DNA of 63,992 bases, filler included, from Streblomastix strix (taxonomy: Eukaryota): NCBI GenBank assembly GCA_008636045.1. It is 4 parts of 4 records of this genome, joined end to end, with 100 filler letters (N's around TTAATTAATTAA, not from the genome) between each part and the next. Parts side by side here need not be neighbours in the genome. Positions count along the whole stretch, not along the records: positions 16,305 to 32,504 come from SNRW01000860.1; 3 more parts are not named here. One strand, given 5' to 3'. This document shows, piece after piece, positions 16,305 through 61,413 of the stretch. Made by a program: the position numbers and the translations under genes. Within the stretch, counting starts at the first letter, position 1. Every line of letters starts with the position of its first letter. The notes beneath the pieces are model-generated. The model saw nothing but the letters and a program-made list of their open reading frames with translations. It made no database searches and was not told where the DNA came from.

Positions 16305-17473
16305 TAATTATATATTATTAATTTGTTTTACTTACAAAATATATTTATTAGCATAAACATGTTGAGAAAACTTGGCTGCAACTTAAAATTAACACGCTGA
16401 CTCTCGCAATTTCATTTATTTATTAAATATAGCATTTTTTCTACAATCACTTCATTTAATATTTAACTAGCATGTATAATACAATATTTTAACTATATTT
16501 ATAATCGAACGCTTTTTTCATAAATTCTACGATAAGCCTGCTCCTAAAATAACTTAAACATATTTGATAATATTTATTACTTTTTCCCCTGATATATATC
16601 AGTTTTCTAAGATATTGTAAATATTTAAACAATTAAATATGCCAAAATACCCGCATTTTTTTAACCTGGTCATGAGCATATTGAATTGTATATTGCATTT
16701 AATTTACTTTTGTTGTGGGGCGGACCCCAAATTATCATATTAACTTTTGAAATTTCGCTCTGGAAATGTATTTCACATTTTCTGAAATTGACAAACCGGA
16801 CGGTTTTGGAAATGCTAATATTTTAATAATTTATTCTCCCATTTTAATTTATTAAGCACAAGGAAAATTTTTATTTTTGCCAAATCATATACATTTCATT
16901 ACCCACGGAACTCTAACCAACCCACACAACCAAATCTCTCTAGGTCAATTTGGCATCCGAAAATTAAAAGTTCCTACGCGCTATAAATGAAAATTCAATA
17001 TAGAATTTGAATTCCAATAAAATTTATATTTCAAATATCAATTTTTTAATTTTTTTAAAATAATTAATTAATAAAATTTTCTATTATCTTTTTTATTTTA
17101 TATTCTGACAAAAAACATTTTATATATTATTATATTCTTTCTTCTATTCAAATATATGGCTGACAATCAAATGAGTTAGATGTTTATTGAAGATAAAATT
17201 GAATTACATAAAAAAACTGATTAATAAAAATCGTAATAAATGCATGATGATCTTTTGACTCAACTTCAATCAATTTCTCAAATTGAATCACAACATTTAA
17301 AATTTGAGGAAGTGAAATAAATTCATGAACATATCAAATAACTTGGAGACGGAAATGAGTTCTCTAAAATTAACATTGAATTATGTAATGAATTTCTATT
17401 TCAGATTGGAGAAGGAAAATCTGAAGAGATTGGAAAGATCAAGTCTTATTCTATCAAAAGTTAAGATTGAATC

Positions 17474-20400
17474 TCAACAAGCTCCCAAATCATCTTCTGG
17501 TAAGGGAGGAATACTAATTGTATAGCAATCATCTCTCGGGTCATGCAGAACACATGGACATTGCAACTTTGGAATACCAACAAGTGTTGTTTGATTTCCA
17601 TAAGGGCAGGTACAGCCTTATGGGTGAAATGATCCATTACATATACAAGAGTCGGGTTCAACTTGCATATTTGATGGAGTTTTGCACTATGTAGTGCATC
17701 CTTTTGGCTTAAATGTATCTGTGCACAAGCAACCATAACTCTAGGAATTTGATGTGCAATCAATTTTATGACATCCAAATGGTTCTGGGTTCGACATATT
17801 TCCGCCAATGCAATTTTTACTTTTTCTGCATTCATTCAACGCATAATACCCATATAGTCCATTAATACTGCAAATACATTCCTGTGGATGGCACTAAAAA
17901 TAGCAGAATTGCCGATATTTTGGATCTGGGTTTTAATCATTAACTCTCTGATCATTTACTATATAAGGACACTATCCAGGTGGGATTCCAGCTGTGCTTG
18001 ATGGATTTGATGGGCATGTGCAATCCTGAGGATGATTTGATCCTGTACAAATACAACCAAAGCCAACATCATCAGAAGTACAAGCTGCTGTTATTAAGCA
18101 ACCAGCAGGCGTAGGAGATCCAAGTGAGCCCCCAGAACAAGGTTAAGGTCCACTTTCACAAGTTGTATCACCAGTTGAACAGATACATGGATGTGTCTAT
18201 GGGAATTATCCTGGTGAGCATTCTTAAAGTGTGCAACCTGCTGGTGTTGGAGCAGTGAAAGTTCCTCCAGTACATGGTTTGTATGCAAGACATGTTGTTG
18301 GATCATATGTTGTTGACAATAAATCACATACACATCCTGCTTATTTATATGTTTCAGTGCATGTGCATCCAACTCCAGAAAAGTCTGATGAACATAAGCA
18401 AGGAGTTGTTAAATCATCATCTACTTAGCATATTCGTGTAATTGGACATTGCGCTCCTATTGTTTATGATCCAGCTCGAGGATCTTCAATTGATTGACAT
18501 TCACATCTATCTGTTTGAATATCAACTAAGTCTTATGGATCATCTGGACACACACATCCATCTGGATCTAAGCCAGGTTTGCAGTTGCATTTATATGTTT
18601 GATCTGCTTATAAACAATCTATTGGAGTGCATCCATTTGGAGAATCGTATTAAGAACATAAACAATTAATTGGCTAATAATTATTTGGTAAACAAAGAGG
18701 AGGGCCTCCACATTCTTCTCTCCAATCATTCTATACACAATTGCATGTTGCTTTTGATGCTACTGTTAATAATATTTCTGGATCTTAAGAGCATATGCAC
18801 CCCAAAGGATTAAACGCATCTGTACAGAAGCAAGAATCAATTGGAACTGATCCTGAATCAGCAGATGTACATAATGGTGTGCATCCTTCTGGGATATTAT
18901 CTTCAATGCACATTTTATTCTTCTAACATTATTCTAAAGACATATCAGCTTGTGGGTGGATGCCGCATGTGCATTATTAGTCTGAATAGACTGATGAGCA
19001 TTGACATCCTATTGGATGAAAGTATGGGTTGCACTTACAAGCATTTGAAGAAGAATTAAAATCACAATAATCAGCAACACAATTTGTAGGGGGTTCTGAG
19101 GAAGAATCATCAGTACAATATGGAGTACACCCAGGTGGAACTGGATTAAGTTCTCCATCAACTCCTACACATGTTTTGGTTGTTCTACAAGATGATAAAT
19201 CATATGATGCTTATTTGTGTTAATCACAAATGCAGTTTGATTGATGAACTATAGATGTGCATGTGCAACCACTTGGTTAATAACTAGCAGTGCAGAAACA
19301 TCCTCTATCTTATGGATTAAGCGTTCCACTTATACAATCTTCAGTAACAGGGCACTCTTATCCAGCTCTCGGATCGTTAGCTACACACGGACAGTCAGCT
19401 TCAGACTAATGCACTAAATCATACTTGCATAATTTATCTTATAGACATACTTCTGGTGGATAAGATACTGATTTAGTATTGCATTAACAGTCTAAAGTTA
19501 GTGATCCTTACACACAATAAGCAGGGCAAAACACATTTGCTCTTGGATCTCCAGAAGGTAAACATGCACATTAACCATTTGGTATTCCATCTAATTCAGC
19601 AGCTGTAGTTGAACAAATACAATCAGATGGGTGATCAGTAGTTGTGCACATGCATGGAATTAATGATGGATTTGATCCAGTTGTACAATTGGGTGTACAT
19701 CCTGATGGGGAATTGGATGAAGTGCAGATGCATGCAAAAGTCTGCGTTGAAGATTCGCATGCAACAGGTGTACAACCAGTTGGTGTTGGATCAGTGAAAT
19801 TTCCTCCAGTGCAAGGTTTTGAAGCTAAACATTCTTAATATGGATATGGGTTATCAGCTCTTGGATCGCAAATGCAATTTGGTGGATAATCAGCGAATTA
19901 ACAATATGCTGGACATTGCGCTCCAATTGTCTATGATCCTGCTCTTGGATCTCCACTTGGAAGACATGGGCATCTATCAGTGGGTGTTTATTAATCCAAC
20001 AAATCGTATGATGGGCACAAACAGCCAGTAGGTGAATGATCGAAACCATTACAGAAACATGAATCTTTAAGAACGGTCAAATCTGAATCAACAGTGCAAT
20101 AATATGTACATCCTTGAGGCCAATCAAATGAAGTGCAGACTTTTAATGCATAACATTACTGAGTTGATAAGTCAACATTTTAGAGATTCCCACATGAACA
20201 AGATTGTGGGTAAGATTCTTTAGAACAGGAACATCCACTTTGATCAGAACCAGGAACGCAAATACAATTCTATTGTTATGAAGGTGAACAATCAACTTCA
20301 TAGCATCCTAATGGTAATAGGTTAGGGTAAGAATAACCTGTACATGGTTGACGACCTTATTAACATATTAAATCACTACCAGCACAGACACAATTATGCG

Positions 20401-22909
20401 TTTCTGGGAATTATCCAGCTTAACAGGTTTGTGTACATCCTTCAGGGATGTTCTATGAAGTACATATCTTAGCTTTTCTGCATACTTCCAAGTCATACGA
20501 TTAATCTTCACTATTACAAAGACAGTCATTGGTTTAATAGTTTGATAATGTGCAGTTGGCAGGGCAGAGATTTCTTTTATCTTTCTCTACACATGGGCAC
20601 ACTGCAATATCAAATACTTACAATTCTTCCAATACTGTTGGACATGTACAACCAGGTGGATGGAATGTAGATGTACAGATGCATCCATAATTCTGATCAA
20701 CAGCTGTGCATTATCCGAGCGAACATTCAAGCGGCCTATAATTCTAAGGGCTATTTCCACTAGTACATGTCTTAGTAGCTCTGCATTATTCTAAAGTAAA
20801 CTATTCATCATCAATTGGACATGTACAATCTTGTGGATGCTATTATATTGTACACAGAGTTGGGCATACTCCAGTTCCAGCTCTGACATCTCCTTCAACA
20901 CATGGACATGTTGTGTTTGGAAGACCAGCAAGATATTCTCCTTACGCACATCTGCATCCAGATGGACTATAATTTTCATTGCATATGCATGTTTCTGGAT
21001 AACTTAATGGATTACTACTAGATGCATTGCATAATGGCTAACAATTTTTCGGTTCATTGTTAATATCACATACTTTTGAAAAGTTGCAATTTGTGGGTGA
21101 AAATTAATTAAACCTGTATTCGTTACAGATACATTCAGGTGGATGAACCTCTTCAGTGCAATATCTCGGACAGAGAGTACCTTATCTTGGATCGTTCATT
21201 GACCTACACGGACACTATGCAGCAGGAATATTGACCAATTATTCAACAGAATCTGGGCATCTACAGCCAACTGGGTGATTGGAAGTTGTGCAAATGCATG
21301 AATCTTCTGTTACTGATGTATCTGAAGGTGCTGTGCATGTCGTGATACAACCATCTGGATGAATTTAATCGTTGCATATACAAGCATACTCCTGATTCGT
21401 GACTTTACAATCTGTAATTTAACATCCATATGGAGTTGGGTCGGTGAAAGTCCCTCCGGTGCATAATTTTGTCTCTCTACAATCTTATATCCCTAAATCA
21501 GTACTATTGTCCAAACTGCATATGCAATCTTGATAATGGTATTACTATGTACAGTAACTTGGGCATAGAAGTCCACCTGATGATGTCGATCGAATGTCTC
21601 CTTCTACACATTGACACCTAGAAGTAGGAATTCTAATTAACTGCGACCAATCTGGTGGGCATTTGCATCCAGTTGGTGAGTGATCATTTGAGCTGCACAT
21701 ACACGAATCGGTTAATACGGTCTATTCAGTTGAAGCTTCACAATCAGATGTGCAACCTTCAGGAATTGGATCGCCTATGCACTTCTTACTTGCTTTGCAT
21801 TATTCGAAATCAAATTCAGCACCACTAATATCATCACATATGCAGTTTTATGGATGATAATCTAATGAACATATACATCCATCACCAGAATAAGATCCAG
21901 AACAAAGGCAGTTAGTTTCAATTGTTCCAAGTTTACATTTGCGAGTAATTGGGCATGTTGAACCTTATCTAGGATCTTCAATTTCATTACAAGCACATGC
22001 TTATGGTGATATTCCAGTCAAATCTAATCCACTACTTGGACAGGTACAACCAACAGGATCAAAACCATTCTTGCAGTTGCATTTGAATGTTTGAAGTGAA
22101 GATTAACAATCTACTGGAGTACAACCACTAGGAGTTGGAGCAGTGAATGTTCCTCCAGTACATAGTTTGGCTGCAAGACATGTTGTTGGATCATAAGAAG
22201 CTGCTGAATTTGTATCGCATATACATCCATCTGGTTTATAATCTTAGGTACATGTACAACCATCTTCAGAAAATTTGTATGAACATAAACAATTTGTATT
22301 TAGTTTGTCTTTATATCCACATTACCGAGTCACAGGGCAGATATTACCTCCTCTTATATCATCACCTGAAATAAATATATGAAGAATAAAAAAGAAAATA
22401 TAATAAATTTGAAATTTATATCAATTAATGCTTAAATTTAAATAGATGATATTTTAAATTACATTATTATAATAATAACAATTAAATTGACCTTATTCAA
22501 TGCACGGGCAAATCTCTTTTGAAATGCCACTCAAAAAATCAGGTATATTGGAACAATTGCAACCTTCTGGCGAATGAACATCAATGCATTTGCAAGTGTT
22601 TAATGGAACTGAAGTCCCAGAACTTTCATTGCAGAAGGGTATTTTTTGTAGTGTTTGATCTGAAAGGCATTGTGCTTTAGTATACTTACCAATTTTGTCT
22701 TCAGGACATTTGCAACCAGTTGGATGCCTGAACCTGGTACAGTAGCAAGACCCATCAACTACAGAAGTGGAAGATAACGCTCCACATGTAGGAAAGCAGG
22801 TCCCCGTGTTGGGCTTGCGCAATGTCTCGGGGCAATTAACGATTGAAATGAAAATGAGTAGCGTTATTAAAATTTAAAACAGATGAAAGTGGTCCAGTCT
22901 TGCCATCAT
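17474..22909 (-). CDS. Large secreted/surface Cys-rich repeat protein (~1770 aa)
   Basis: Signal-like MMARLDHFHLFQILITLLIFISIVNC, then many CxC..HPxGCxC, CPCxxxDPR and CTGGxFTxPTPxGC repeats. One GT-AG intron at 22366-22491. TGA at 17474-17476. Frame continuity was only spot-checked. Confidence 0.85.
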
Positions 22910-23108
22910 TAATATTCTAAATATTCAAAAAATGGAATCAAAATTATAATGAATTAAATGCTATAATTCAATATATGATTGGAAAATGTTCAATTATTTT
23001 TTATGATAGATTTTTAAGCTTCTGCTGCATAAAAATTAAATGAAAGACATGTAAAGATATTAAATTTTGTAATTATATAATAATAAATAATAATATAAGT
23101 AGTATACT

Positions 23109-23468
23109 ATGAAGAAGTTTGGGGGAAGTTCAAAAAGCCATTCATTTTCAAATAAATTCCCAAGAGCAAATGCACAGGCATAGCCCTCAGGTTTGAAAAT
23201 ACGTGATTTTGAACTGCCTCCATACAATCTTCCTCCAAACTATCGAATAGACATAACGGAAAGCAATAATTGTTCACACTAATATAAGGAAAGAATAAAT
23301 ATCATTAATCTGAACGATTTTAAACAATTTGCACACATTAATCCACATGATTATCGAATAAATATATCAGAAAGCATTAATTGTCCACGCCAATCCATAT
23401 AATTAATGGTGTTCATTAATAGACTGTTTTAGGCGCGGCTACGGAGGATTATTCAATTTCGTTTATGA
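23109..23468 (+). CDS. Hypothetical ORF with an internal YRI(D/N)I(T/S)ES(N/I)NC duplication
   Basis: ATG to TGA open under TAA/TAG=Q; no recognisable family. Confidence 0.3.
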
Positions 23469-24099
23469 TTTGGACAAACTGTTATAGTAAATGTGGACAA
23501 GTAATTATACCGTTAATCCTTATTATTTTCCTGTGTTACTATTTAATTAATAAAAATATATTTAAGAGGGGGCATCTCAATCATTAGCGTTTAGTTAATT
23601 TGTATTTTTAAAATATGCTTCAGATATACGTATTATGTCATGTACATGATCTAACATAAAATATAGATTTGAAGCATATTTTTTCTTTGCTTCAGTATCT
23701 TTAATTTCATTATTAAGTTGTTTGTATTCTTATTGCAATTTTGGTTCTAGCTATTTAAAAAACTCATACATTTATTTGTCCATTTTAAATTGGAAACAAA
23801 AATAATATATAATCAAACAGTAAAATTAATTAATTTAGCTAACTTTATTATTATACCTAGGTTTATTATCATTTCAAATATTATGTCTAATTCATTTTTA
23901 CATTGCTTCTGTAATAAAACTGTCAGTTTAATCATAAATTAGCGATTGTCCAATTATTCTTTCAATAATAAAAACTTATTTACAATTATATTATATATTC
24001 CTTCAATATTTTTGAGATTATATTGATTCATTTTTAATATAGGAACAAAAAATAATCGTGTCAATTTAAATCAAAATTAATATCTTTGTACTATTCTTC

Positions 24100-24711
24100 A
24101 TACTATACAGGTTCTTCTTAACATTCATGCGGATCTTAAATTTATTCAATTATTTATTCGTTTTCAATAGTCTATTTAGGTTACTTATATCGTTTAACTT
24201 TTTATTTATATTTTTCTATTCATTTAACAGCATCTTAATGTTATTATTTAATAAATGAATTTTCTGTTCGCAACCTGATTAGTTCTTTTAAATCAAGTTG
24301 AGTATTAGCATAATTAATTTACGGAAATTTAGATATTTTTACTACTTTTTTTCTAACTTATTTCTTTAATGGGTTTTCCCTAACTTCACTTATGGAATCG
24401 TCATCACTTTCATTTTATTATTCTTAAAATTCATAAGATATAAAATCTTCATCTTCATCAATTTATTTTTAAGGTTGTATTTAAACTTTTTTCTTTGGTT
24501 TTACAAAGCTCAAACCTTAGGTTTCCAACCTTCCTCCACGAGGCTATAACAATAACTTATTCTATTATATTTATGTTAATTTTTTAAGTATCTTCTTTCC
24601 TTCTTCGAACACTTTATTACCTCTATTAATTTGGATTACATATCCATTGTCAAAGTATTCAATATTTGTTCCATTTTCTTTCAAATTTTTTTATGCGTAT
24701 TGTAAGTCCAT
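24100..24711 (-). pseudogene. Hypothetical charged/coiled protein of the element
   Basis: MDLQYAQKNLKENGTNIEYFDNGYVIQINRGNKVFEEGKK..EDEDFISYEF..; internal TGA; 3' end approximate. Confidence 0.5.
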
Positions 24712-24734
24712 TTGAGTATTTTTAAGTAAAGAAA

Positions 24735-25950
24735 ATGATAAAGGGCATAGAAAGAAACTCAATTCGAATGTCAAAAACCAAAAAATAAATGTCTGAGATT
24801 AAGCATAAATAACTTACAGATGAAGAAAAAATAAGATTGCAACTGATTAATTATGCAATTAGTCGCATAAATTCAATGTCAAAGATAGGTCTAGAAAAAA
24901 GTGAAACCATAGATGATACTTCTCAGCCTAAAGAAAATATAATTTAAACTGAAAATGAAATTATTCAAGTAACACCAGAATAATTGGTCCTTACCAAATA
25001 AAAATTACTATGTACACGCGCAAATATAATAAAAATAAATATAAATAAATTGATAGAACAACTGCATAAGTTGACCCAGAGGAAGTAGTTAAAAATACTT
25101 ATCTTTTTCATCCAAATCTTGAAGTAATGAAATTCATTATTGATAAATTATGGGCAACAATTACAACAAGAAAAAAGGTGATGATTTTATACTTTCATCA
25201 GACAGTTTTATTAAACTTTGGTCATTAATCACTTAAGAGAATGAAGATGATATTGAAATTGTATTAGAAGAACCATTAATGAGATCCTATTCATGTATAG
25301 GTTAATCATATAAAAAGAAGGATCTAATAATAGTAATAGATGTGTTAATTAAAATGTTAGCATATCAGTTATTAATAATGTTCTTTTTAATTCTATTAAG
25401 AAACTGTATCGAATTAATAAAGATTTTGTTAAGTTGTCTGATGAACCTACATCAGAGATTTCCAAAGATGGTTTTTGAAATAATTATTTTTGCTGTCATT
25501 TTTATTTTACTTTTAATTATTTTTACTGGCAACAAAAATTCTTACACAGTCTGAAATTGCTAGAGGAAAATTGCTCAAGAAATCTTTAAATATTGCAAAG
25601 AAAATATGTGTTCAACCTATATATTAATGTGGTGATGATTTCTATTAACGAACAGTAAATAAATTCGTTAAATCATATTATATATTATTAAAACAATATG
25701 GGAATAGACCTGCTGAATATCCATAAACAGTTTATATTATGATCGAGAAAAGAAATAATGGACATATTGATGACACAATTACATCATATACTCGTTAGAT
25801 GAAGAAACTTATAGATAATACATCTAATTATCCAATGCGAAACTTAAGTGAAGATGATGCAGTCAAATATAGGAAACTAAAAGAAGCAATTAGTTAAATG
25901 TAAGAATAAACAAAATATAATTAGTACGATTAATGTGGAGTAAAAAAAGA
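24735..25950 (+). pseudogene. Hypothetical protein(s) of the element, frameshifted
   Basis: MIKGIERNSIRMSKTKKQ..; segments AQVDPEEVVKNTYLFHPNL and EEPLMRSYSCIG lie in shifting frames. Confidence 0.45.
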
Positions 25951-26199
25951 AGCTAATTGTATATAATACTATATTAATGAAACCTGATGTTTAAGCTAAG
26001 CTATATGATTACTCCTTATTTTTGCAATAAAAATGGAATAATAATTAAGCGATTTAGATATGATTGATGATGATGAATAAATTATTTAGTAATAATAGGT
26101 AAATTAACTAATAAAATAATAAGAAGAGAAATATAAAAAAATTAAAGAACGTTACATATAATTATAAGTTACTGTTAATGAGATAATAAAGTACTTTAA

Positions 26200-26791
26200 T
26201 TATTTAAGTTAATTCTTTAGAAATTATATTGATTTTGTTAATTTACGTTCTAACTAGATTAATCGTGGAGAAAAGACATTTTGATAACCTATAATAGCTA
26301 GTAAAATTATTTAATAAGGTGGAACAATTAACTAAATTCTATTAGCTAATGGATATACTATTGATAAGGATTAATTAGATTATGAACCTATTGAAAATGC
26401 ACGTTATTCATCAATTGCTTAAGGAATGTATGAGTAACGAATATGGGGTACAGTAACAACATAAAATAGTAGAGTATATATTTCTCTGTTAATAACTTAT
26501 TCTGATTTTAATACAATATGGTAATCAGGATATATTTTATTTTAAATCGTTGAAAATGCTATAAACCCAAAATTCACTGCAACACTTAGTATCATACCAT
26601 TAACTGCAGTTATGTTTGCGTAAATAGTTTAAGGTTATCCAATATGCTAGAATGGTGCTGATCCTATAGATTGTTACATTTACTCTAATGGAAATATTAT
26701 AATAAATACAATGTGTTAGCTAAGTTTTGCTGATGATTTTTGTGTATAGGTATGTGATTCATATGCTATTCATAATTAGTCAGCTAATTGA
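26200..26791 (+). pseudogene. Short tail-fibre-like protein
   Basis: NQINRGEKTF, then GGTINQILLANG (26318-26353), then a beta-rich C-terminal domain ending in TGA at 26789-26791. Both motifs have counterparts in the fibre gene at 29295. Confidence 0.55.
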
Positions 26792-26957
26792 CAAATTTAA
26801 AAATAATCAAATGAATCCAATAAACGAAACCATCATCTATTCTCTTGAATAATTGAACGTTAATTTGCATGCAATCTTTAAGACTACTTGGGAAGCAGCA
26901 ATCAAACATACATGAGAATCAAAGATATGCCACTGAAAAATAAATTCATTTTTGCTA

Positions 26958-28944
26958 TCATTGTGGTTAAATAAATGCTTTTGCAAGCTCTTCAACAACA
27001 TCAATATTTAGTACTTATGGCTTTGAACTATCATCAAATATAATTCTAACAAACGCATCACACACTTAATGCATCATTGGAGTAATAGATGCATTATTTG
27101 GATCAGAATATGCTCTTGTTCCAATGAATTATTTGAAATCATTTTAGATCTATGATGGACTTATATTAGTTGTATCAATAATTCCTTTAGTCAAACTTCC
27201 TTACAAAATCATTAATACATTAGTTCTAGAACCTATCTTTGAAGAGTTACATCCTCGCATAAATGAATCATCTGTAGCCAATTTCCATGCAAGCATATAT
27301 TTATTTGGATAAAGTGTTCTAATAGCTTAACTTCCACGATACAAAGTTGTTAAATAGAATAGATCAGATGTTTTATATAAATTGTCATTATCTACCCTTA
27401 TAGAAATGGCTTTTATCATAAAAATTCAAATTTTCAAATATAAGTGAATGATACAGATCTGATCGTGCACTAACAACATCTTAATCAACGAAGCAGTCAA
27501 ACATTTATCCATTAGTTGCTTAATTCAATGATTTATATAGTTATGGGATAATATTATTCTAATCAATGACCAGATTAAGTCCTGGGAATAATCCTGGGAA
27601 AAACCATGTTGGATATTAGGGCATAGCAAATGTCATAAATAATGCATTTATGTTAGAGAATGGCATAATGCTTTACATAGATCCACTATTTTTATCAAAT
27701 CAACTAAATTGAAAGTTTGATGATTATGTTACAAATACTTATGTAGGAAAGTTAATTATTTTTTGTTATTGAATCACATTAATTACTGTATCTTCATTTT
27801 AATTATTGAAACATACGTTCTATATCTCCAAAACATCGAATTTAGCTTTCTAAATTTAACTAATTGAATTTTGTAGTATCTTATCACCAATAGTCGCATT
27901 TTACATATTTACAATTCTTATATTATATCTCTGATATTCAAGAGTCATATTTACTTCTCCTCTTTCAGTTAAAAGATAAACAATATCAGGTTTCTCAGGA
28001 GAAATCATATGATAAGCTAAATGATTATTTTATACTGTATCATTTTTATTAAGCCAAACAACCTTCAAATCTTATAGCAAATGTTATATCCATAATTATA
28101 GATGTAATGTTGCATAATTACGAATAAGAACAGGAAATGAATTAAATATAGGATTTAATTAGTTAAGTTCAAGTACTCCACCAAATGTAATATCGTTAGG
28201 AATTTTATAATAGAATGGTGTTGCTGTAGTTTAAACAGTTGCTTATATATCAATTTCACAAAGTGATATATCAATAAATACTCCACAATGAAATTTTCCT
28301 TCAATTATACTTTCAAAAGGTGTAACTCAAACGCTATTTTTAGTGTAAAAATCATTAAAAGAACTTCCACCAGTTACCGCTTATTTTCATGCATACACTG
28401 CAGATACACATAGCGCTGTTGCATCTTTTATTAGTTAGAAGTAATATGATGGTCAGCACGCGGTTTAGAAACCAATCCAAAATTATAGATGTTCTGATGA
28501 TTTAATCCCTACAACTGATTTACTATAATATTTTTATATAGCTTATGACATATTTGTAGTCCAATCAGCTGTTGGATCTTCTTTGCCATTGAAATTAGTT
28601 CGTGTGTTTTGTTTTGCTGTAGTATCCCATCCTGTAGCTGTTTCATTTAATTATATCGCTAAAATGTTTGCAGATATTGTGAATGTCCAATTTACTTAAC
28701 AAGTTTATATCAATAAACATGCAAATTTACCTCTTGCTCCTAATGGTGCTCTAGTATATTTAACTCCACTGGACGTAAGTTCAGTAATAGGAGAATCGAA
28801 GAAATTTTGCTTTGATAGTTCAAATGATAGTGGATGAATAGATATTGTTTCTAGAACTTCTCCAAGTTATATATATATACTAACTTAATCGGAATGTGCT
28901 ATTTTCGATAATTGTCCAAGATAATCACTAGATATGAATGACAT
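26958..28944 (-). pseudogene. Putative major capsid protein (double jelly-roll?), ~660 codons
   Basis: MSFISSDYLGQLSKIAHSDQV..NWTFTISANIL..FWIGFQTA..HCGVFIDI..FMTFAMPQYPTWF..YMLAWKLATDDSFMRG..TPMMHQVCDAFVRIIFDD. The capsid call is inferred from size, beta-strand patterning and context. Internal TGA (e.g. 27700-27702) and a frameshift near 27380. Confidence 0.5.
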
Positions 28945-28963
28945 TTCAATAAAACAAAAATTA

Positions 28964-29238
28964 ATGAACTAAAATCCAAGACTAAGCTTCGTTAAGAGAT
29001 GGTTATGTTAAAAGTTTTTATAATAAATCAAATGGGTTTGTTCACTGGAATTGTAAATTTTGGGTCAAAAATATTAGATGATGTTAAGAAAGCAGCTTAA
29101 TGGGTTGCACCAGCATTGCATAAAGTTTTGTTAACAATATCAGGTCCTGTTGGAATGATTCATCTATGAATTGGAGGAGCATTAGGTGCAGGAGCTAACC
29201 TTACAGGTGCTGTTGATAGATTAGTTAATAAACACTGA
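28964..29238 (+). pseudogene. Small Gly/Ala-rich amphipathic-helix protein
   Basis: From 29032: MGLFTGIVNFGSKILDDVKKAAQWVAPALHKVLLTISGPVGMIHL*IGGALGAGANLTGAVDRLVNKH*. An upstream ATG at 28964 is in another frame. Confidence 0.6.
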
Positions 29239-29294
29239 GCATTTATGCCCGCCAACAAAATTGGTAATAATAATCAATTTATTTTTATTGAAAC

Positions 29295-31432
29295 ATGAAT
29301 AATACATTATCCCAACAATTAATCTGTTAAGTTAGATAGTTAATCACTAATAATATAGCATATTATATTCAATATTAGAAACGAGGTAACTCTAGTGGTG
29401 AAATGATGTCAAATGAAGAGTATTAAATATTCATCGATAATAACAAATCATTAGTTTACGTCACTAATATTTAAATCGTTGATGGAATGGGATCAGATTT
29501 TGCACTATAAATAGAACCTAATGAATTGCTAGCGATAAAGAATTTGAAAGTGATTAATTTTGAGTTTGTTGCATAGATTAATTAGTTGATTAATTAAGTG
29601 AATTTACTACAACAATCAATTGGGACAACTGAATAGGATATTACTGATATAAAGAATGATTTTGATACCATTAATCAATAATTATCACGATAAACACATT
29701 TCCGAGGATATTATTTATTGAATAGAGATCTATAAAATTTACCTAATTCCGCTAATGGTGATTTTTCATTTAGTACTGAAAGCGGAACAGTAAGGATGTA
29801 TGAATAAAATTGGTATAATGGTGGAGATATAGTTCCAGATCAAGTAACGCCTGCAAGTGATGCCACTCCATTAGCTGATGGTACTGCAACTGCAGGAATT
29901 AGCACAGAATATTCACGTGGAGATCATGTTCATCCACTAAACGTAACAACTACCATACCGATTAGCGATTCTGCTAGTGGTTCAGTTGGTACAACTAACT
30001 ATTATGCAAGAAACGATCACTCTCATCCACTCAATATAACAAATTCAATACCTCCACAAGATAGTGCCAGTGGATCAGTTGGTACAACTAACTATTATGC
30101 CAGAAACGACCATTCTCATCCAATTAATGATGAAATTAATGCTTCAAATATCCCAATCGTTAATGGTGTTGGTGCTAATGGAACTTCAGCTTTTTACGCT
30201 AGACACGATCATGTTCATCCATATCAATTAACTAATGATGAAAGTGTAACTGTGACTAAATTTATTAAAACTGGTGGAACAAATAATGATTTATAATTAG
30301 CGGAAGGAACAACTAAATAAATAACAGATTTCAACTCAAGTATTGCATCAGTCATTTAATAAATCAATCCTCATGATGGTATACATTGGTAATGCCTTGC
30401 TGTATTAACAATACCTGATTATAAATCTGTTTGGTCATTCGGATGTACAATTGATATTAATAATTTTTTTATCATGATTTATTTTATCAGCTTAAGTAGA
30501 ATCTTAGAATATAGCTCGGATTTTCTAAGTAATTTATTGCTACACAATTTGGTTCAATAAAAATAGATTTTATGGTATGAGCTGATTTTCCTGAAACATC
30601 ACTTATTTTGAGATTCTACATGAAATCAAATCACATATCCTATTATAAGATTTGGACCATTAATTTATCATAATTTGCTGATGCTGCTGTTCGTGACAAT
30701 TTTGTACTATAAGATAATATAAATTAATATAATATAACTACTTATACATTACCATCTGGTTCATAATTTGCAGGTACCACTATATAAAATAAATTCACTA
30801 ACAATGGTGGTACAATTAATGGTAGTATTTAAATAAATCCTACAGCAACTAGTTATGATGATGGTTTGAGAATATCCAGATCTGAAACAGATACAGATAA
30901 TTCATCGATTTAGTTAAGATGGAGTTGATCATATAACACAGAACTTACTGAAGGATAATGAGCAATATTTACACCATCAAATACGGCAATAATTAATTTT
31001 TATGGTTTATTAATTGCAGTGGCATCTTAAGCTGGCGATAATACAGGAGGATTATAAATATGCACAGATGTAAAAAAATTAACATTTAATGGTAATGGAT
31101 TCGTTGATTTACCAATTGATTAAACAATAAAAGGAATGAAATCATTCGAAAAATTAATATAAGTAATTCCAACATCAGATGGAGCATATAACGAAGCGAT
31201 ACGAATAAGTAGGCCAACAAAAAACTAATGGAGTAATATATAATTTGGTTGTGATCCATATTCAAATTCTGGGTCTTTTGATAATAAATGGTCTATAGGA
31301 ACTTCTGGAAATGATGCTGCAAATCGTCTCGGTTTTGTCATCGTAAAGGCAGGATAAGTAGGTTCATCTAATAGAGGATTATAAATAACCGCTGATGGAA
31401 ACACATTATCTTTCAATGGACGGGTTCTTTGA
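29295..31432 (+). pseudogene. Phage-tail-fibre-like protein with RxDHxHP repeats
   Basis: N-terminal coiled coil; four Y(S/A)RxDH(V/S)HP repeats at 29910, 30003, 30096 and 30195; FIKTGGT; DQTIKGMKSF; two tandem C-terminal modules (xxRISR..GLQIxxD..L(T/S)FNG). Stops and a frameshift in the 3' half. Confidence 0.7.
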
Positions 31433-31879
31433 TTATACTTTATTTTTGAAATAAATGGAAAAGCTGTAACATAATCGATAAAACAATTGTTCAATGAATT
31501 AATTAAATAGCATTTTTAAGATAATAATACAATTAAATATACAATAGAAGCATTATAAAATTTGTTAAAGAATGATGCAAAAGCATCAATCCATCCATTA
31601 CTCTAAGAATTAATGAGAATCAATAAAATGTTCACTAATTATTAACAATAATTACAAAATATAAAGAAAATAGTAGATGAGAAAGATTATTAAAATAAAT
31701 TATTTAATGAATAGGATAAATACTTCAAAAATATATATCTATTAATTAAAAAGTTAATAAATCTAAACTATTAACTATAATAAATAAACAAATACATTAT
31801 TTCTGATGCTATTGAAGAAGAGAAATAGATTTACAAATAATTTCTGAATGATGAGTAATGCAGTAACTGTGTCAGATAC

Positions 31880-32504
31880 TATTCTCTTCAGAAGATACCT
31901 CTTAATGGGGAAAAATTTAATCTAAAATAATTTGATTATTTACATATTAGATATTTTCGATTATATATTTATTTTTATCTTACATTGGATTGTGAGAACA
32001 AAAGCTAAAATGTTATAACATCATATTATATCTACTTTTATCATTTTAATCTAATTCAATCATAAATTTCCATGGAATTACAGTATTCGTGTTAAGTGCT
32101 TAAAATATTTTGAATATCTCATAATCAGACGCATCATATTTATCTCCAATTGTTTTTGCTAAACTATATATATCATCCACTTAATTTATTTCAAATAATT
32201 TATTTTATGAGTTATTTAACATTATAAGAGACAAGATATATCTCCAATGAGTTGCCAATTCCAAATCTTCATTTGATATTGCTTCGTTCAGAAACGTTTC
32301 GATTTATTCTACAGATAATTATGGCCAATGTATTCTTGGTTAATTTTTATCCATATTTCTTTTGTAAAAGAATTGTATAATACAAATTGTTATATTTAAT
32401 GGAACCAATTCTATATCAAAATAACTCCTTAATGTTTTTACTACATTAACTGTATCCATTAATTTATCAGGAATTGATACAGATATAATTGATGTTACAA
32501 AAAT
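31880..32504 (-). pseudogene. Hypothetical protein of the element (5'-truncated)
   Basis: Long open frame ..IPDKLMDTVNVVKTLRSYFDIELVPL..PRIHWPQLSVEQIETFLNEAI..; no family recognised. Confidence 0.45.
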
Positions 32505-32604: not shown

Positions 32605-33690
32605 GACCATAATCAACTTTGAATAGTGAGGCAATATGTTTTAATAATGCAATTAACGAGTATGTATAAAAATTATAGAATAATATGTTCTCATTAAACT
32701 ATAATTATGGATAAAATTTTGTGTTTATGCCAAACATATTAAATTAATATATTAACTTTTGAATTGATGCATTTCTCTATCACTACTGGATTTTAGATAC
32801 TACAGTTAATGAGCTATATCGAATGATTAGATTAATACGATTATATTGCCCAACATCAAATAACTTCATAACATCAATCGAACCTAAATATTTTACATAA
32901 GGGAATGGATTATCAATAAGGTGCCTATTTGTTAAGTAAATTGACATAAATCCTAATGTAACATTTACAACAACTGATCTATAAACAGTGAATGTACAAT
33001 AATAATCAATGTAATAAATCATTAATAATATTAACACGTTTCCAGTTAGAATTATCAAATAACTATTTGCATTATTTATAGGTGAACGGCAAAATATTTA
33101 TACAGCAGTTGGACGAACTAACTGTTATGGATAATTCATTCCACAATTTGTGATTGATTACTGTTAATAAAACAAAACTTATTGATTTTCTATTCGTATG
33201 TTATTATCTCCAAAACTATACGAATATTTAGTTGATGCATAAGATCTATATGTGGATAGAACGAGTATGGAGCCAATTAATTGGTTATTTTATTATAAGC
33301 TATTAAGTAAATTGATCTTGTAGTATGCTTTTATTAAATTAAACATGATGGTCAAAGTTACGAAGTTGATCTTCCAATATTCTGCCCATATATCGGGAAT
33401 TTTCTGGAATATTCAAAAATGTTGATAATTTGTGTGTCTAATAAATTATAAGGAATAACTCTTAAATAAACAGTTGGTTACGGATTCTTTAACTTATGCT
33501 TTAAATAGAATTTAGTTGATGCACCAGTATTATTGGGATAGAATATGATGAGTCAGTAATGTCTTGTAGGATAGAACAAATCGATGGTTTTAAATTATAT
33601 GATAACTTTGGAAGAAAAGTACCAATGTAATACATGGATATGAGTAATAATTTATTTCTCGAGATATAATTTTAAAGATCAGTCTAAATT
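32605..33690 (+). pseudogene. Putative minor capsid (penton-like) protein, 5'-truncated and frameshifted
   Basis: C-terminal EQIDGFKLYDNFGRKVPMQYMDMSNNLFLEIQF (~33574-33672) resembles the hxhxDxxGxxh...hxhxh tail of Polinton/PLV pentons. It lies directly upstream of a pPolB. Confidence 0.45.
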
Positions 33691-33809
33691 AGTTATATCT
33701 ATTTTGATCTAAACGTCCTATCTGAAGAAAACCTAGCAAATCAAACTATTCAAAATCAATAACAAAAACATTGAAAAAACATTAAAAATAAATTAACTTA
33801 AAGACTAAC

Positions 33810-36650
33810 TCAATGAATATATAGACAAAATTAATTGAAAAAAGAGAGGAAGAAATAATTTTAGTGAATTAAAATACATATAAAATAAATTCATAATTAT
33901 AAGACGTATGTTGTTAAAGCAAAATAAGTGATTAATTATTTTTAAATTGAATCAACATGATTAAGATTTTAAAGAATATCGTAGAAAATAAATAGTAACA
34001 ATAAGCTGATATATATTGGGATGATATATAAATTGAATCGATAATTACATTAAGATTTAACTGATTATCATTCAAATTAATATGAATAAGATTTATAAGA
34101 ATATCGTAGAGAATAATCGTAATAATAAGCTAATGAATTCTGGACTGATTATGTCATTAAAGAACAGGATCCAGTCTATAGAATAATGAATATTGAATAT
34201 GAAGTGAATATTCAATACTAAATAATTGCTAATCAAAATATAGAGATTAATGATTAAATTTTATTGTACGATGGACAGAATGTTTAATGAAATATAAATT
34301 GATGCAGGTATTTTATTATATTTTCTTCTTAAGAGTATGGAACAGTTTATTGCTACAGTTAGAACAGCAAGAAAAGGTTTTGATCTTAAACGTACAATCG
34401 ATTAAATTGAAGCTGAAAGAATATTTAGCAAATTACATTACGATAATGATATTTAGTCATTGACAGAGATTGCAGAGTTTGTTAATGAAGTTTATAAAGA
34501 ATTACACCAATAAGCATTCAAGATTCAATTCAATTTTTGAGTCATTTACGAAGAAAATAAGTACGATTAATATGATTTCGTTTACGTTGATTATGAATAT
34601 ATGTTACCTACAGATACTTGTATACAAGAATATACTCCTAAAGTTATATAATTAGAAGATGATAATGATGAATATGATCAATACATTAAATCTGAGACAA
34701 TAAATATATAGAACTATACATTAGATAGTACATTGTAACGATATATAGCTATCTATTCAATGATGATTAATACAATTAATCTTTACCCATAAATTGTTGG
34801 CGCTAGTATGAAAGAATTAATCGATTTTCATTGTATTGGTCGCAAAAAAGTTATATATAAAAATACAGTAAATAATAATAATTGTTATATTGAAGCAATA
34901 ATAAAAGCATTACATCCTTACACGAAAGAGAAACATTATAAAAGGGAATCAATTATAAACATTAATAGAGAGTATTTAGTTTAAGTATTAGAACAACCAT
35001 TCAATTCAAAGAGTAGAAAAATGACAGATTTATTGAAGACTTTTGATGGATTAGATATAATTAAATACGTTAATATAGTATCATAAAAGTTAAAAGGTAA
35101 CTAAGAAATTTAATATTACGATAATGAACATAAGAGTTATTATAGAGGACTAAAGATAAGGTATTAATGTGAAAACAAAAATGAAAAATAAAAGAGTATT
35201 AAGACTATCGATATATTAGTTGTTGAATCGATTTAGGAAGGAAATAAGATATCACATGCATTTGCAATAGCTAATAAATATGCATTAACTGGATTGAAAT
35301 TTATCCATATTGTAACTCAAAAGCATTCGATCCTAAAGATAATAATTACTTAAGAGACTATGAGAAACACATTATAAAATGTGAAAATAAAGAAGAAAAA
35401 ATTGTTAAGAAAGTTAAATTAGATTATATATAATAACCTTTTGTTCTACATATTATGTAGAATAAAACTTACCAATATCTATTAACAAATGGAAGATAAC
35501 ATGAATTTAAACCTACGCAATACTTTATCATATACGATCTTGAAATAGTTCCTAAAATCGTTAATAAAAAGTTCAATAACCAAGCTATTAAATGTATGAA
35601 CTTTTTCCTTTATCAATTGCAACAACTATTCGTAACAAATAAGGAATTAAGAAAATCTTCTTTAGCTACTAAAATGGAAATGATTTTATAATTTAATGGT
35701 TAAATTAGTTATTTTAGGAAGCTGAGTAAGTTAATGCTGATAGTCAATACATTACTGACTCACACTATTGATGAAACAATTCCTTATTCAATCGAAGTAC
35801 CAATAGTAAGATTCAATAGCTCAAGATTTGATATATCATTAATCATATCATAAATGTAATGTAAAGATTGGACAATCAGTAATTATATTGGTAGCCCTAC
35901 AATAGCAAAACAAGTAATTGTACATCATAAGAAATTGAATTTGAAAGTGAAATTTGTTGATATGTTAACATATCTTTAACCGATGGAATTAAAGTAAGCA
36001 GCAAAAGATTTTAGAGATGGATACGATGATAAGAAAGGAATATTTCCTTATGAAACTTTCAACACTGATAACGTTAATGAAGTACTTAGTAAATCAGAGC
36101 CATTTTCAATGGAAGATTTCAATTCATCATTAAAGAAGACAAAAATTAGTTAGTAGGATTACTAAATTTATCTTGAAGATGCAAAACGATTTAAAAATAG
36201 ATGGGACTATTTACAGTACTATAACGAATAAGATACTTACATAATGATCAAACCATTAATGACTCTAATTAGCTTACAATTTAAATATAAGATTGATATG
36301 TTTAGCTTCATGAGTATGGCTGCATGCTCTAATGCTATCAAATATGCTAAAGCCTATGAGGATTTTGATATTAATGGTGTATATCCTAATTTTGAAGATT
36401 TATCATAGAAATTTTACTTAACAGAGAACTATTGGTAGAGTAAAGTGCGTGGATATCAAGTCTAAGATAAACATTAAAGATGAGATACAACAAATAACGT
36501 TTAAGATAAGGATTTCGATTATTTCAATCAATTATTCAAAGTTTCTAATTGCAGCATTTGTGGACGCAAAATAAAGATTTGGAAATCATTAATTATGCTG
36601 ATAGCTCTTCAATAGCTAAGTTAGTAATTATATATCATAAAAAATTAAAT
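33810..36650 (+). pseudogene. Second protein-primed PolB: N-terminal and exonuclease part only, truncated
   Basis: AFKIQFNF, NNNCYIEAIIKALHP (~34873), PYC..EKHIIKC zinc finger, ExoI YFIIYDLE (35521), ExoII FNSSRFD (~35812), KKGIFPYE (36031), ExoIII YYNEQD (~36217). It breaks at CSICG (~36550-36565). The start is uncertain. Confidence 0.85.
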
Positions 36651-37139
36651 TTTTTCTGCAATTTTCTTAATAATGCTTCTCAATAAATCAAATATTTCTG
36701 GTTTGCAATCAAATTTAAATAATATTTAATCATATGATCTTTATATTCATTTATATAATAACATGTTGTAATCAATTCTAATGTCAAAACTGAAATTTTT
36801 TTTGAAGTTAGAAGAACTTATTAGTATTATGATGAAATGGATAATAAAGCTTTTCAAATTGGTCGTTTTCAAGAACCAGCTGTTATTTTATTGATCAAGA
36901 ATTTCGTAATACAACAAAATATATGAGCATATTAAAATAAAAATTCTTAAAAATAAATTACGTTTCAAGATTAGTGAATTCATTTGTCTTTAAAGAATTA
37001 TAGTATGTTATCTTGAATGATGATAGTATAATATTTAACTAATTAATTTATCTTTCACTGAATGCCTATGTACTACTATAGCTAAAAAAATATAAAATAA
37101 ATAATAAATATTAATTATTATTAAATAAATAAAATAAAT

Positions 37140-55000: not shown

Positions 55001-56460
55001 TTAAGGTTATCGATGGCAGGGGATTACTCAATAAGGAAGGAAGTATTAGAGGTTGTTTTGAAGCATTGGAAAGTAGAGATAGCAGTGGATTTATTCGCAA
55101 CAAGAAATAATTCTAAACATAAGAGATATTATACATTGGAAAAGGACAAAAAAGCAGAAGGATGAAACTAAATGAGAGTCTCTTGAGAGGAGCAGTTTGC
55201 ATTGATACACCCACTAATACCAATAATTAGTAGGGTAGTAAGGAAATTAATAGAGGAGAGAGCTTAAGGAATAATGATAGTACCGCGTTGGCCAGGATAA
55301 GTCTGGTGGACATCGTTAAATGAAATAACAGTGAGAGAGAAGAAATTGGGAGAGAGTGAGAGGGTGTTGGAGTGCGGACTGATGATGAGAAATCTGAAAG
55401 TTCGTCCGGGGAGGATATTGGCTTTAGAGGCAAACGGGGATAAGATGGAGCAAGATTATTTCAAAATGCATTGATAACATCCGTTTTATCAAGAAATGCA
55501 ATTAGAACAATAATAGATAACTGGAATAGAATTTGAAGAAGGCATGCCTGCGCGCTATCAGCCTTTTGGAAGAATAAGAGGAGGAGAGAAATGAGTGTGG
55601 AGTAGTCAAAAATGGTAAAATAACCATATATTGTAATAGTATAATATATTATAGAGAAAAATAAGGATTAGTCGGACGCAATAGTATTATAAACATGGAC
55701 TTTAGTATCATCAATGCTTGAATTAGTAAGAAGTGATGAGAAGGACTTAAAAAATAAAGTAATAGAATAAATATCTTTAAAACTAGTTGTAAATACAAGG
55801 AAAGTTATTAGAGAAATTACAATCAGGAAAATGGAGCAGCTGCTTGAATATAAAGTGAGACATAGTATATAAAGATATGAGGAAAATTTAACAGTTAATA
55901 AGTTAATAAGAGTGGTCTTTATTATATTTATGGTTTATTTAATTTTTATGATAATAAGAAATATTAAGAGATATGCTAATTATAACACAAATAGAATAAG
56001 AAATAATATTAATAAGTACCAATTTGCTTAAAGACAAGAGGGAAAAAGTAGTAGTAACTTTGAAAAGTATAAACAATAAAGCAGTTTGCCTAGTTACAAG
56101 ATTTTTAGCCTGGAATAGGAACTGAAGTGTCAGAATTATTGATAAAAATTCCTTTTGGAGAAATTGAAAAAAAAAATGATCATTATCACTAGAACAGTGA
56201 AAAAAAATAGGTTCATACAGTAAATAATTGAACAGGAATTGATAAGAAATATTCAATAACAACTATAAGAAAGGTGGCAATATCGACAATTCAAAACAAT
56301 TATAAAAAAAAGATAGAGATAGATTGATGGAGTAGGCATAGAAAATCTGTGGATACAGTAAGAGAGAATTACGAAATGATTAACAATAATAGCATAAGGA
56401 AAGCGCTATCCGAATGAGTCTCGGCTAGAGAAGAGGGTAAGGCGAGTGAGTAAATAGAGT
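52050..56460 (+). mobile_element. DIRS1-like tyrosine-recombinase retrotransposon (gag, RT, RNase H, methyltransferase-like, YR), decayed
   Basis: FVIKKSGGGLRRIMDCRPLN; YADD at 54148-54159; TDASNSG*G at 54652-54678; SNLREILAI; DLFAT at 55088, IHPLIP, PRWPGQVWW; YR-like AVCLV and TTIRKVA (56259). Many stops and frameshifts. Confidence 0.88.
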
Positions 56461-60925: not shown

Positions 60926-61413
60926 AAATAAATGATATAATAAATTAGTTAATTTAATGTTCTGTAAATCGTTTTTATTAATTATTTATGAAAAAAATTA
61001 AAATATTTTTCATTAAATATGATATTACTGATATTGTATAAAATATACAATCAAATCACAAAGTATTTTAATAAAAATAAATGCAAAATATACTTAAGAT
61101 CAAGAAAAATATATCTAATTTAGTTGAAGGAAAATAAAAAATATAAATATAATATAAATAAGTTGTTAAATATAATATAAATAAGTTGTTATATTTAAAG
61201 TTTTTCCTGAAAATTAATTATAAAATACAAATTTAAATAAAAATTAAAAATAAAATTATATTTGAACAAGAGATAAAAAATTACAAAATAAAAACTTATT
61301 AAAACAATTTCTATTATCAAAAAAAAGTAAAATAAAAAATAAATATATCATTGAAAATCATATTTAACAGATATTTCAACGAATTTAAATTAAAAAATAA
61401 ATATTTTGATAAA

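Follow-up and report, generated by a model that had tools for sequence, protein, structure and literature searches.

A probable broken copy of a multi-copy Streblomastix strix virus with a predicted double jelly-roll capsid and a phage-like fibre

In this study, we analysed a stretch of 63,992 nucleotides (hereafter the window), which joins four parts of four records of the Streblomastix strix assembly GCA_008636045.1. The region of about 23.1-32.5 kb is a decayed, intronless viral module that uses genetic code table 6 and reaches the end of its contig. We consider it probable that this module is a broken copy of a many-copy S. strix virus, with a predicted double jelly-roll capsid, likely a pPolB, and a fibre that would come in part from a Bacteroides phage. 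Capsid, small amphipathic ORF and fibre stand together in many copies, in the host code and without introns. The host is likely S. strix, and the source organism is most likely a termite-gut protist. The features are as follows (the last three lie on other contigs of the window).

22785..23324, no strand: left-edge bin of high-copy sequence and junction with host DNA (bin resolution; summed depth)
23577..24711, minus: three short ORFs (23577-23783, 23813-24031, 24220-24711; reading frames, high depth)
24735..25987, plus: broken ORF or ORFs with several frameshifts (reading frames)
26033..26791, plus: short fibre-like gene with a coiled-coil-like start, one shaft motif, a beta-rich end and one nonsense codon
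26958..28944, minus: major capsid protein gene, predicted double jelly-roll family, about 660 aa (homologue identity and P0038 model)
29032..29238, plus: conserved ORF of 68 codons with an N-terminal amphipathic helix and one nonsense codon (hydrophobic moment, homologues)
29295..31432, plus: long modular fibre gene, about 710 aa, with one frameshift near 30470 and nonsense codons (profiles, homologues)
31433..32113, plus: coiled-coil-like ORF (reading frame, high depth)
31872..32504, minus: open frame continuing past the contig end (reading frame)
1067..4920, plus: near-complete, frameshifted pPolB of a second subfamily (homologue comparison)
32607..33770, plus: ORF of no assigned function and a broken penton-like ORF, upstream of the next gene
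34286..36671, plus: truncated, frameshifted pPolB (P0403 is 75% identical)

An earlier reading from the sequence only had placed the start of a multi-copy cluster at 23550. The cluster itself was confirmed, but high-copy DNA begins further left, in the bin 22785-23324, where the summed depth rises from 85 in the preceding bin to 1,928, and then to 5,292 and 20,385 in the next two bins. In run X1, the summed contig depth (which is not a copy number) was 23-151 over 17385-22784 vs 1,247-47,018 over 23865-32504. Only about 9.4 kb of the element and one flank are present, and the second end is missing; on this contig, which ends inside the element, the left edge has no partner for a terminal inverted repeat. 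A host-type Cys-rich gene adjoins the viral module.

The proposed reading of TAA and TAG as Gln held when table 6 was applied: 34 of the 42 Gln codons in the capsid frame are TAA or TAG, and frame analysis showed that table 6 is required by all ORFs of the module. The lack of introns was likewise borne out by the capsid homologue P0012, which can be aligned across 515 aa with 2 gap positions before the match passes into a different frame. Decay is seen as nonsense codons and frameshifts in the capsid, the long fibre and other ORFs. Published work cautions that apparent stops in elements of this kind may arise from assembly errors (PMC10120064).

The beta-rich ORF of about 660 aa was located on the minus strand, from 28944 to 26958, and was identified as a capsid gene through a modelled homologue. 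It is disrupted by four in-frame TGA codons and one frameshift near 27400, and it is 70% identical to P0012 and 50% identical to P0038. Reading TGA as Trp or as another residue was ruled out. None of the four TGAs lies on a Trp column, the residues aligned with them being Gly, Arg, Ser/Thr and Gly/Asn; where conserved Trp columns are covered, TGG is used in 5 of 6. Thus, the capsid stops are true nonsense codons. Sequence searches against Pfam, PHROG and PDB gave no useful match for the capsid. An earlier model of the closer homologue P0012, built with S. strix copies only, reached pLDDT 49 and Z < 4 and had no fold match, and a confident model was obtained once distant homologues joined the S. 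strix copies in the alignment. The P0038 model (pLDDT 85.1, pTM 0.88) had the mavirus capsid as its top Foldseek match (E 3e-12), and VIA-align gave Z 15.4 and rmsd 3.6 with 339 aligned, its best 16 rows being double jelly-roll capsid or scaffold proteins throughout. As the sequence-only reading expected, the capsid family is predicted to be double jelly-roll, and the double jelly-roll MCP, which defines Polinton-like viruses together with a penton and an A32 ATPase, is represented here by P0038, whose confident model stands for a window gene 50% identical to it. A tailed phage (Caudoviricetes) was rejected, as the capsid models as double jelly-roll and the code is table 6; a PHROG scan of 15 window proteins gave no portal or head matches.

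Mavirus, Sputnik and other virophage capsids stood at or near the top of the Foldseek lists, which would suit an element that, like a virophage, depends on a giant virus as its helper, with pPolB coming from a different element. However, capsids of iridovirus, phycodnavirus, adintovirus and adomavirus ranked level with them, all at 7-10% identity, virophages came sixth and seventh in VIA-align, sequence searches of Pfam and PDB did not link the capsid to those of virophages, and pPolB adjoins a fibre gene once. We regard such an element as very unlikely.

For the many-copy virus, the collection of copies gave 232 capsid and 395 fibre homologues, and the best 120 of each were all from S. strix. 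Together with the high summed depth, these numbers substantiate a multi-copy family. Distant capsid relatives, 27-30% identical to P0153, occur on metagenomic contigs up to 21.8 kb, vs about 9.4 kb of the element present here and a genome size of 15-45 kb for Polinton-like viruses. Scans of IMG/VR found no free relatives of the capsid or pPolB and, with the fibre, two weak shaft-motif matches; scans of JGI contigs found no relatives.

These null scans, the broken state of the window copy and the many database copies of capsid and fibre that are short or partial could also be explained by a particle-less, self-copying transposon in which capsid and fibre are hitch-hiking relics. Nevertheless, several subfamilies retain full-length capsid ORFs of about 650 aa, which are 50-70% identical and share conserved motifs, the metagenomic relatives are full-length and standard-looking on contigs of about 20 kb, and the exchange of fibre cassettes (see below) fits selection on binding. 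The transposon explanation is therefore one we hold to be unlikely.

It is somewhat less unlikely that the window holds just another copy of the catalogued S. strix Metamonada Maverick/PLV cluster MMPC_40 (820 capsid genes), with only the fibre detail being new. Host, code and a capsid that can be confirmed by modelling only are shared, the clustering was loose (25% identity over 30% length, PMC10120064), and a few motifs near the N-terminus of the printed representative can be matched by eye to the window family. However, this representative has 562 aa vs about 650 aa in the window family and differs at its start, and three of its short motifs were in none of the homologue proteins collected. 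In addition, six locus tags and four motifs of the window family are absent from the portion of the PMC10120064 supplement covered. That study gathered S. strix capsids from Trichomonas seeds only. The window-family profile found 213 proteins at E <= 0.001 (best 150 of 213 listed).

Two fibre-like ORFs had been reported, but the region of about 2.1 kb at 29295-31432 does not hold two separate long fibres; it is a single gene with the frameshift near 30470. Its product, likely an attachment fibre, consists of a coiled coil, a module of about 80 aa, four His-x-His repeats, a shaft motif, a middle cassette and repeated C-terminal modules. The shaft motif of the short fibre-like gene matched the long-fibre profile weakly (hhalign probability 44% over 42 columns; E 2e-4 with a custom HMM), and a homologue of this gene is fused to the capsid in the gene model P0248. 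Among fibre copies there are three alternative middle cassettes (A, B and C) that cannot be aligned with each other: the median blastp E was 1e-24 to 1e-44 within a type, and 6e-4 to 3.9 over 17-37 aa between types. In the best 120 of 395 fibres, 27 carried only B, 14 only A, 6 only C, 1 two cassettes and 72 none, a variation possibly inflated by automated gene models. Curated families said little: for each of one PHROG and one Pfam family, 1 of 31 members matched weakly. The window fibre pieces gave no useful match in Pfam, PHROG and PDB sequence searches and no phage tblastn match (P0297 gave two weak ones), the PDB matches of the fibre profile were coiled-coil matches, and no S74 chaperone, collagen or phage-tail-repeat Pfam domain was matched in the fibre.

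The suggestion of a phage-type fibre gained support from the module of about 80 aa, which is up to 51% identical (E 1e-34) to parts of long, prophage-like genes in two Bacteroides MAGs; the fibre profile reached E 6.9e-34 in G001 and 1.9e-31 in G002. Identity to 14 bacterial modules was 47% on average and 59% at most, and it was 37-95% among the bacterial modules. The neighbours of the carrier genes match head protease, portal, tape measure, holin and amidase families; to judge from these matches, the carriers sit in tailed-prophage-like clusters. As in the S. strix fibre, the module follows a coiled coil, and the carriers are long genes flanked by head/tail genes on one side and by portal or lysis genes on the other. 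The bacterial clusters differ in using table 11, in their GC content of 43-45% and in having the module up to several times per gene. Besides G002, the module was not found in Bacteroidota genomes drawn at the levels of family (400), phylum (400) and 'relative' (40), about 840 samples that may overlap. The tree of the module places the viral rows on one side of a branch (99/99) and the bacterial rows on the other; it is unrooted, and thus it does not identify the donor. As the fibre shares the 80-residue piece with Bacteroides prophage-like genes, it would point to a bacterial-virus origin, and we infer that it moved from a bacterial phage to the S. strix virus and not in reverse.

The fibre's likeness to bacterial prophage genes, in a data set of the termite-gut metagenome type, might instead suggest that the module belongs to a bacterial phage, or that misassembly has produced a chimera on a protist contig. 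This explanation is already largely refuted, and we give it hardly any credence: all ORFs need table 6, the host-type gene stands next to the module, the capsid-fibre order recurs on 14 other contigs, and the S. strix capsid family was not found in G001-G003 (a search run without a positive control). A bolder version of the viral reading is possible but doubtful, namely an unclassified gut-protist virus lineage apart from the Metamonada cluster, which would have recoded a Bacteroides-type phage fibre module and would swap receptor-binding cassettes as tailed phages do. On this version, the donor phage plausibly infected bacteria coating the host cell, and the protist was possibly reached through or via its bacterial coat.

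The divergent pPolB genes noticed on two other contigs of the window are 39% identical to each other over 198 aa, and 2 of 8 pPolB homologues scanned passed Pfam DNA_pol_B_2. Gene linkage was read from locus tags and contig sizes, not from DNA. Co-occurrence on single contigs is indicated for capsid and fibre by 14 pairs with equal contig size and close locus tags (14 of the 43 listed fibres on contigs of at least 6 kb), and for fibre and pPolB by one pair; none of 14 S. strix pPolB models shared a contig with a capsid of the window family. The single pair joins P0403, of the 34286-36671 subfamily, to the fibre P0323 by adjacent locus tags on the same 15,922-bp contig, and represents 1 of 4 pPolB models on contigs of at least 7 kb (about 4% by chance). 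There is also an indirect chain from capsid to penton-like ORF to pPolB: the pPolB gene models P0406 and P0408 also cover 32607-33770, and the capsid gene model P0249 matches 33421-33546 weakly on the opposite strand (43% over 42 aa). The penton-like candidate itself (33186-33770) had no match in any library searched, including Pfam and PHROGs. On balance, we lean towards pPolB belonging to the same element as the capsid and fibre.

The amphipathic character of the small ORF was confirmed: the hydrophobic moment is 0.54 over residues 2-23, a value reached by 7 of 10,000 shuffles. Twenty-four database gene models open with a stretch 66-89% identical to it, and it had no match among Pfam, PHROGs and PDB sequences. 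Its product is likely a membrane-active virion protein and may resemble adenovirus protein VI. Among the other ORFs, those in 23577-24711, read through in six frames, matched no Pfam family at E <= 0.01; 24735-25987 had no Pfam match or Walker A motif, and its scanned pieces no PHROG match; 31433-32113 had one weak match (E 0.005) to a PHROG family of unknown function; and the 31872-32504 frame had no Pfam or PHROG match. The packaging ATPase, protease and integrase, which had escaped the sequence-only reading, were again not found in the pieces present of an element cut by the contig end: there was no Walker A motif or Pfam match for an A32-like ATPase, no match for a retroviral-type integrase, and no Pfam match for an adenain-like maturation protease (one loose motif match, on a probable non-coding strand).

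Intact members of the family would likely copy their DNA by the protein-primed polymerase and pack it in the predicted double jelly-roll capsid. The fibres may form trimers at the capsid vertices, where the constant N-terminal half would anchor and space them and the exchangeable middle and C-terminal modules would decide which surface is bound. At entry, the amphipathic protein might breach the membrane, and a putative integrase would then insert the viral genome into host DNA.

Compared with known systems, the proposal of a Polinton-like virus with phage-like fibres stands as regards capsid, family, fibre and some pPolB linkage, but not in the novelty it implied. Polinton-like viruses that use the host code have been published from S. 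strix (PMC10120064), and viruses of this kind often have phage-like fibres (PMC12220804, PMC8502044). The Metamonada Maverick-Polintons/PLVs of S. strix and Trichomonas vaginalis (Bellas et al. 2023, PMC10120064) share with our family the S. strix host and its code, hundreds of endogenous copies and a divergent double jelly-roll capsid seen by modelling only; they differ in the shorter MMPC_40 representative, and 'fiber' does not occur in the main text of that paper. The PLVs with bacteriophage-like fibres (PMC12220804; MELD viruses, PMC8502044) likewise have long modular fibres with phage-type repeats beside capsid genes; in T. vaginalis elements, phage tail repeats are fused to collagen. The S. 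strix fibre, which lacks S74 chaperone, collagen and phage-tail-repeat matches in Pfam, differs in its rare module, whose bacterial relatives are close and named, and in its choice of three middle cassettes. Adintoviruses and MELD viruses also have a short amphipathic ORF within the virion module (cupiennin-like, protein VI-like; PMC8502044), a likeness by analogy only, with no sequence match to the S. strix ORF. Rumen virophages, in the part of PMC4409740 covered, resemble our family in gut setting, double jelly-roll capsid and pPolB, but their capsid is of the typical virophage kind, and they possess an ATPase and a protease.

Possibly new are a second S. strix capsid lineage with metagenomic relatives on contigs of about 20 kb and a traceable bacterial relative of the fibre. 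According to the part of bioRxiv 10.64898/2026.06.19.733378 covered, virus classification still has no place for metamonad Polinton-like viruses, and the full-length metagenomic relatives on genome-sized contigs could anchor the S. strix family there. Our results also suggest that the viral part of the S. strix genome exceeds the published share. Furthermore, the phage-like fibres of PLVs are known from domain likeness, whereas the bacterial relatives of the S. strix fibre piece are specific, rare and about 50% identical to it, and therefore transfer from a phage to a eukaryotic virus becomes testable by phylogeny and binding assays.

The element occupies the right-hand part of contig 2 (16305-32504), one of four spacer-joined contigs in the window, and carries a capsid gene, a small ORF and a second fibre-like ORF at the following positions.

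28944-26958, minus strand: capsid gene, with four in-frame TGA codons and one frameshift
29032-29238: small ORF, 68 codons long; its N-terminus is strongly amphipathic
26033-26791: second fibre-like ORF; a shaft motif is all that it shares with the long fibre

The sequence-only reading had noted a ~660-aa beta-rich ORF, and by its predicted fold this is the capsid gene. Searches against Pfam, PHROG and PDB sequences gave no match, and a structure model built from 51 S. strix sequences alone reached pLDDT 49. A capsid profile matched 213 proteins among 1.84 billion representatives, and the best 150 of these included ten longer, distant proteins, whose contigs, 2.5-21.8 kb in length, come from Logan, ENA, JGI and NCBI. 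With distant relatives added (93 sequences), the model of P0038, a homologue 50% identical to the window capsid gene, was confident (pLDDT 85.1, pTM 0.88). Foldseek matched this homologue's predicted double jelly-roll to mavirus, iridovirus, EhV, PBCV-1 and Sputnik capsids (best E 3e-12), and further to virophage, adintovirus and adomavirus capsids. In VIA-align (Z 15.4, rmsd 3.6, 339 aligned), all of the top 16 rows were double jelly-roll proteins. Since the fold-match identities were only 7-10%, no single closest virus group was picked out. A quick tree separated 8 metagenomic capsids, at support 100, from a single long-branch side made up of 18 S. strix capsids.

The viral ORFs require table 6, the host code, as had been proposed. 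In an alignment of 50 homologues, the four TGA stops of the capsid gene sit at Gly, Arg, Ser/Thr and Gly/Asn columns; TGA recoding was thus ruled out, and the stops are nonsense changes.

The small ORF had been described as amphipathic. Its N-terminus has a hydrophobic moment of 0.54, equalled in 7 of 10,000 shuffles, and a conserved copy (66-89%) is kept in 24 gene models. Annotated libraries gave no named match. By analogy with adenovirus protein VI, its product would breach a membrane. Small membrane-active ORFs are reported for adintovirus and MELD virion modules in PMC8502044.

Two fibre ORFs had been claimed. The homologues P0297 and P0298 first follow one frame (29295-30485) and then the next one (30464-31093); thus, the long region is a single gene with one frameshift, two separate ORFs are ruled out there, and the second, short fibre-like ORF is that at 26033-26791. 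A low-depth contig of sequencing run X1 bridges 30144-30558 with 4 differing letters and zero gaps, so the sequencing data carry the shift as well as the assembly. In the fibre family, which curated libraries barely detect, the N-terminal half is constant and the remainder variable, although the gene models are automated and false splicing may explain part of the variation. By short motifs, 27 of 120 models had middle type B alone, 14 type A alone, 6 type C alone, one had two types, and 72 had none (truncated or other). These types are alignable inside each type and hardly across types; the window copy is type C.

Two conserved fibre patterns were searched against 185,579 prokaryotic genomes, giving 56 pattern matches in 18 loci; three loci, in two Bacteroides MAGs (G001 and G002), stood out. 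In whole-genome profile searches, G001 had 6 matches (best E 6.9e-34) and G002 had 11 (best E 1.9e-31), and three other genomes gave His-repeat matches only (E 8e-10 or weaker). The virus and Bacteroides genes have in common a module of ~80 aa that aligns almost without gaps. Identity to 14 bacterial modules was at most 51% for the window module and 47% on average (maximum 59%) for 58 viral modules; the 14 bacterial modules were 37-95% identical among themselves. The bacterial modules belong to genes of table-11 clusters in which head protease, portal, tape-measure, holin and amidase families were also matched, and the phage-type fibre claim is upheld by this sharing with prophage-like head-tail clusters. 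The two MAGs hold several related clusters with module-repeat fibre genes, G002 at least three.

G002:C3, G002:C10, G001:C240 and G001:C367 (loci L003-L005 and L033-L036): Bacteroides prophage-like clusters

Locus L004 also carries an array of repeat-rich genes, which we presume to resemble BspA-type leucine-rich proteins. The module was not found in draws of 400 family, 400 phylum and 40 relative genomes, G002 excepted, and the capsid family of the element was not found in G001-G003. In an unrooted module tree, 12 viral representatives split from the 14 bacterial rows (support 99/99). Because bacterial diversity is larger and the bacterial genes have a tail-gene context, we infer that the module may have passed from a bacterial phage to the virus. 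Bacteroidales surface symbionts live on Streblomastix, according to PMC2717939.

Capsid and fibre occurred on the same contig in 14 pairs, read from locus tags and contig sizes among 120 capsid, 120 fibre (including the model matching the window) and 14 pPolB S. strix models. The contig-3 pPolB, searched against proteins >733 aa only, gave 24 matches, 14 from S. strix and 10 others. One, P0403 (75% identical), is tag-adjacent to the fibre model P0323, whose start is the small ORF, on the same 15,922-bp contig; such adjacency was seen for one of four pPolB models on contigs of at least 7 kb, with ~4% expected by chance. No capsid-pPolB pair was found by tags among the 120 capsid and 14 pPolB models. 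The proposed co-occurrence with pPolB was seen once for the fibre and was not found for the capsid, and the element is likely linked to pPolB. In addition, one capsid gene model has a match (43% across 42 aa) on the strand opposite to the contig-3 penton-like ORF, and two pPolB gene models cover the ORFs upstream of the contig-3 pPolB. As the sequence-only reading had noted for the hallmark genes, neither the 18 read-through frames searched nor motif scans revealed an ATPase, protease or integrase, and no terminal repeat was found on the element contig, which ends inside the element.

S. strix was the named source of all of the best 120 of 232 capsid homologues and of the best 120 of 395 fibre homologues. 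Together with the use of table 6, this makes S. strix, an oxymonad of termite guts, the most likely host. X1 contigs were placed on the window at 85% likeness and summed per bin; the sum is no copy number, and X1 may itself be the source of the assembly. Summed depth was 23-151 across 17385-22784 vs 1,247-47,018 across 23865-32504, climbing within bin 22785-23324. This step identifies the region as part of a repeat family and shows the family's left boundary, and homologue numbers and depth bear out the multi-copy claim. A host-type ORF adjoins the viral junction.

17474-22420: Cys-rich repeat ORF, 1,648 aa, intronless, 38% GC, surface-protein-like

The left end of contig 2 (16305-16844) is non-coding with a depth of 20,187, and an X1 joint runs from 23096 to 17056 (depth 989). 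Self-blast found no strong match between the 16305-16844 and 23096 regions. This left end may represent a repeat of its own or the end of a further element.

Elsewhere in the window, two further features were seen.

1-1077: coiled-coil ORF directly upstream of the contig-1 pPolB, candidate viral or host, with what we take to be IQ-like motifs
53641-55320 and 60068-60988: broken reverse-transcriptase-like frames with YxDD motifs, presumably resembling DIRS-type retroelements

The contig-1 pPolB (P0009) has an internal HNH/endonuclease VII-like stretch (residues 217-293; window 3025-3255; PHROG 1035, E 1.5e-5), a motif also visible in S. strix and metagenomic pPolB homologues. Metagenomic pPolB relatives (P0411, P0413-P0416, P0418, P0421-P0424) are 33-38% identical to the query on contigs of up to 18.3 kb, and P0424 (1,978 aa) has a long additional C-terminal part. 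These relatives and the metagenomic capsids may come from one lineage.

The element would work like a Polinton-like virus, and its capsid, by predicted fold, is of the double jelly-roll type of such viruses. The finding is real, and its general kind is already published. PMC10120064 gives 820 S. strix capsid genes, all within the Trichomonas-seeded cluster MMPC_40 (representative 562 aa), with the host code used; the portion of its supplement searched lacks six locus tags and four sequence motifs belonging to this capsid family, which the rest may list. It was the only work found on Streblomastix, oxymonad or termite-gut Polintons, and no paper describing the present fibre or a second capsid lineage was found. 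In the parts consulted, PMC12220804 reports phage-like fibres widespread across Polinton-like viruses, T. vaginalis included, with S. strix unmentioned, and a 2026 preprint (10.64898/2026.06.19.733378) leaves metamonad elements ungrouped. What is added to these systems is a fibre piece that can be traced to prophage-like genes of Bacteroides and a capsid lineage, probably separate from the published one, with genome-sized metagenomic relatives.
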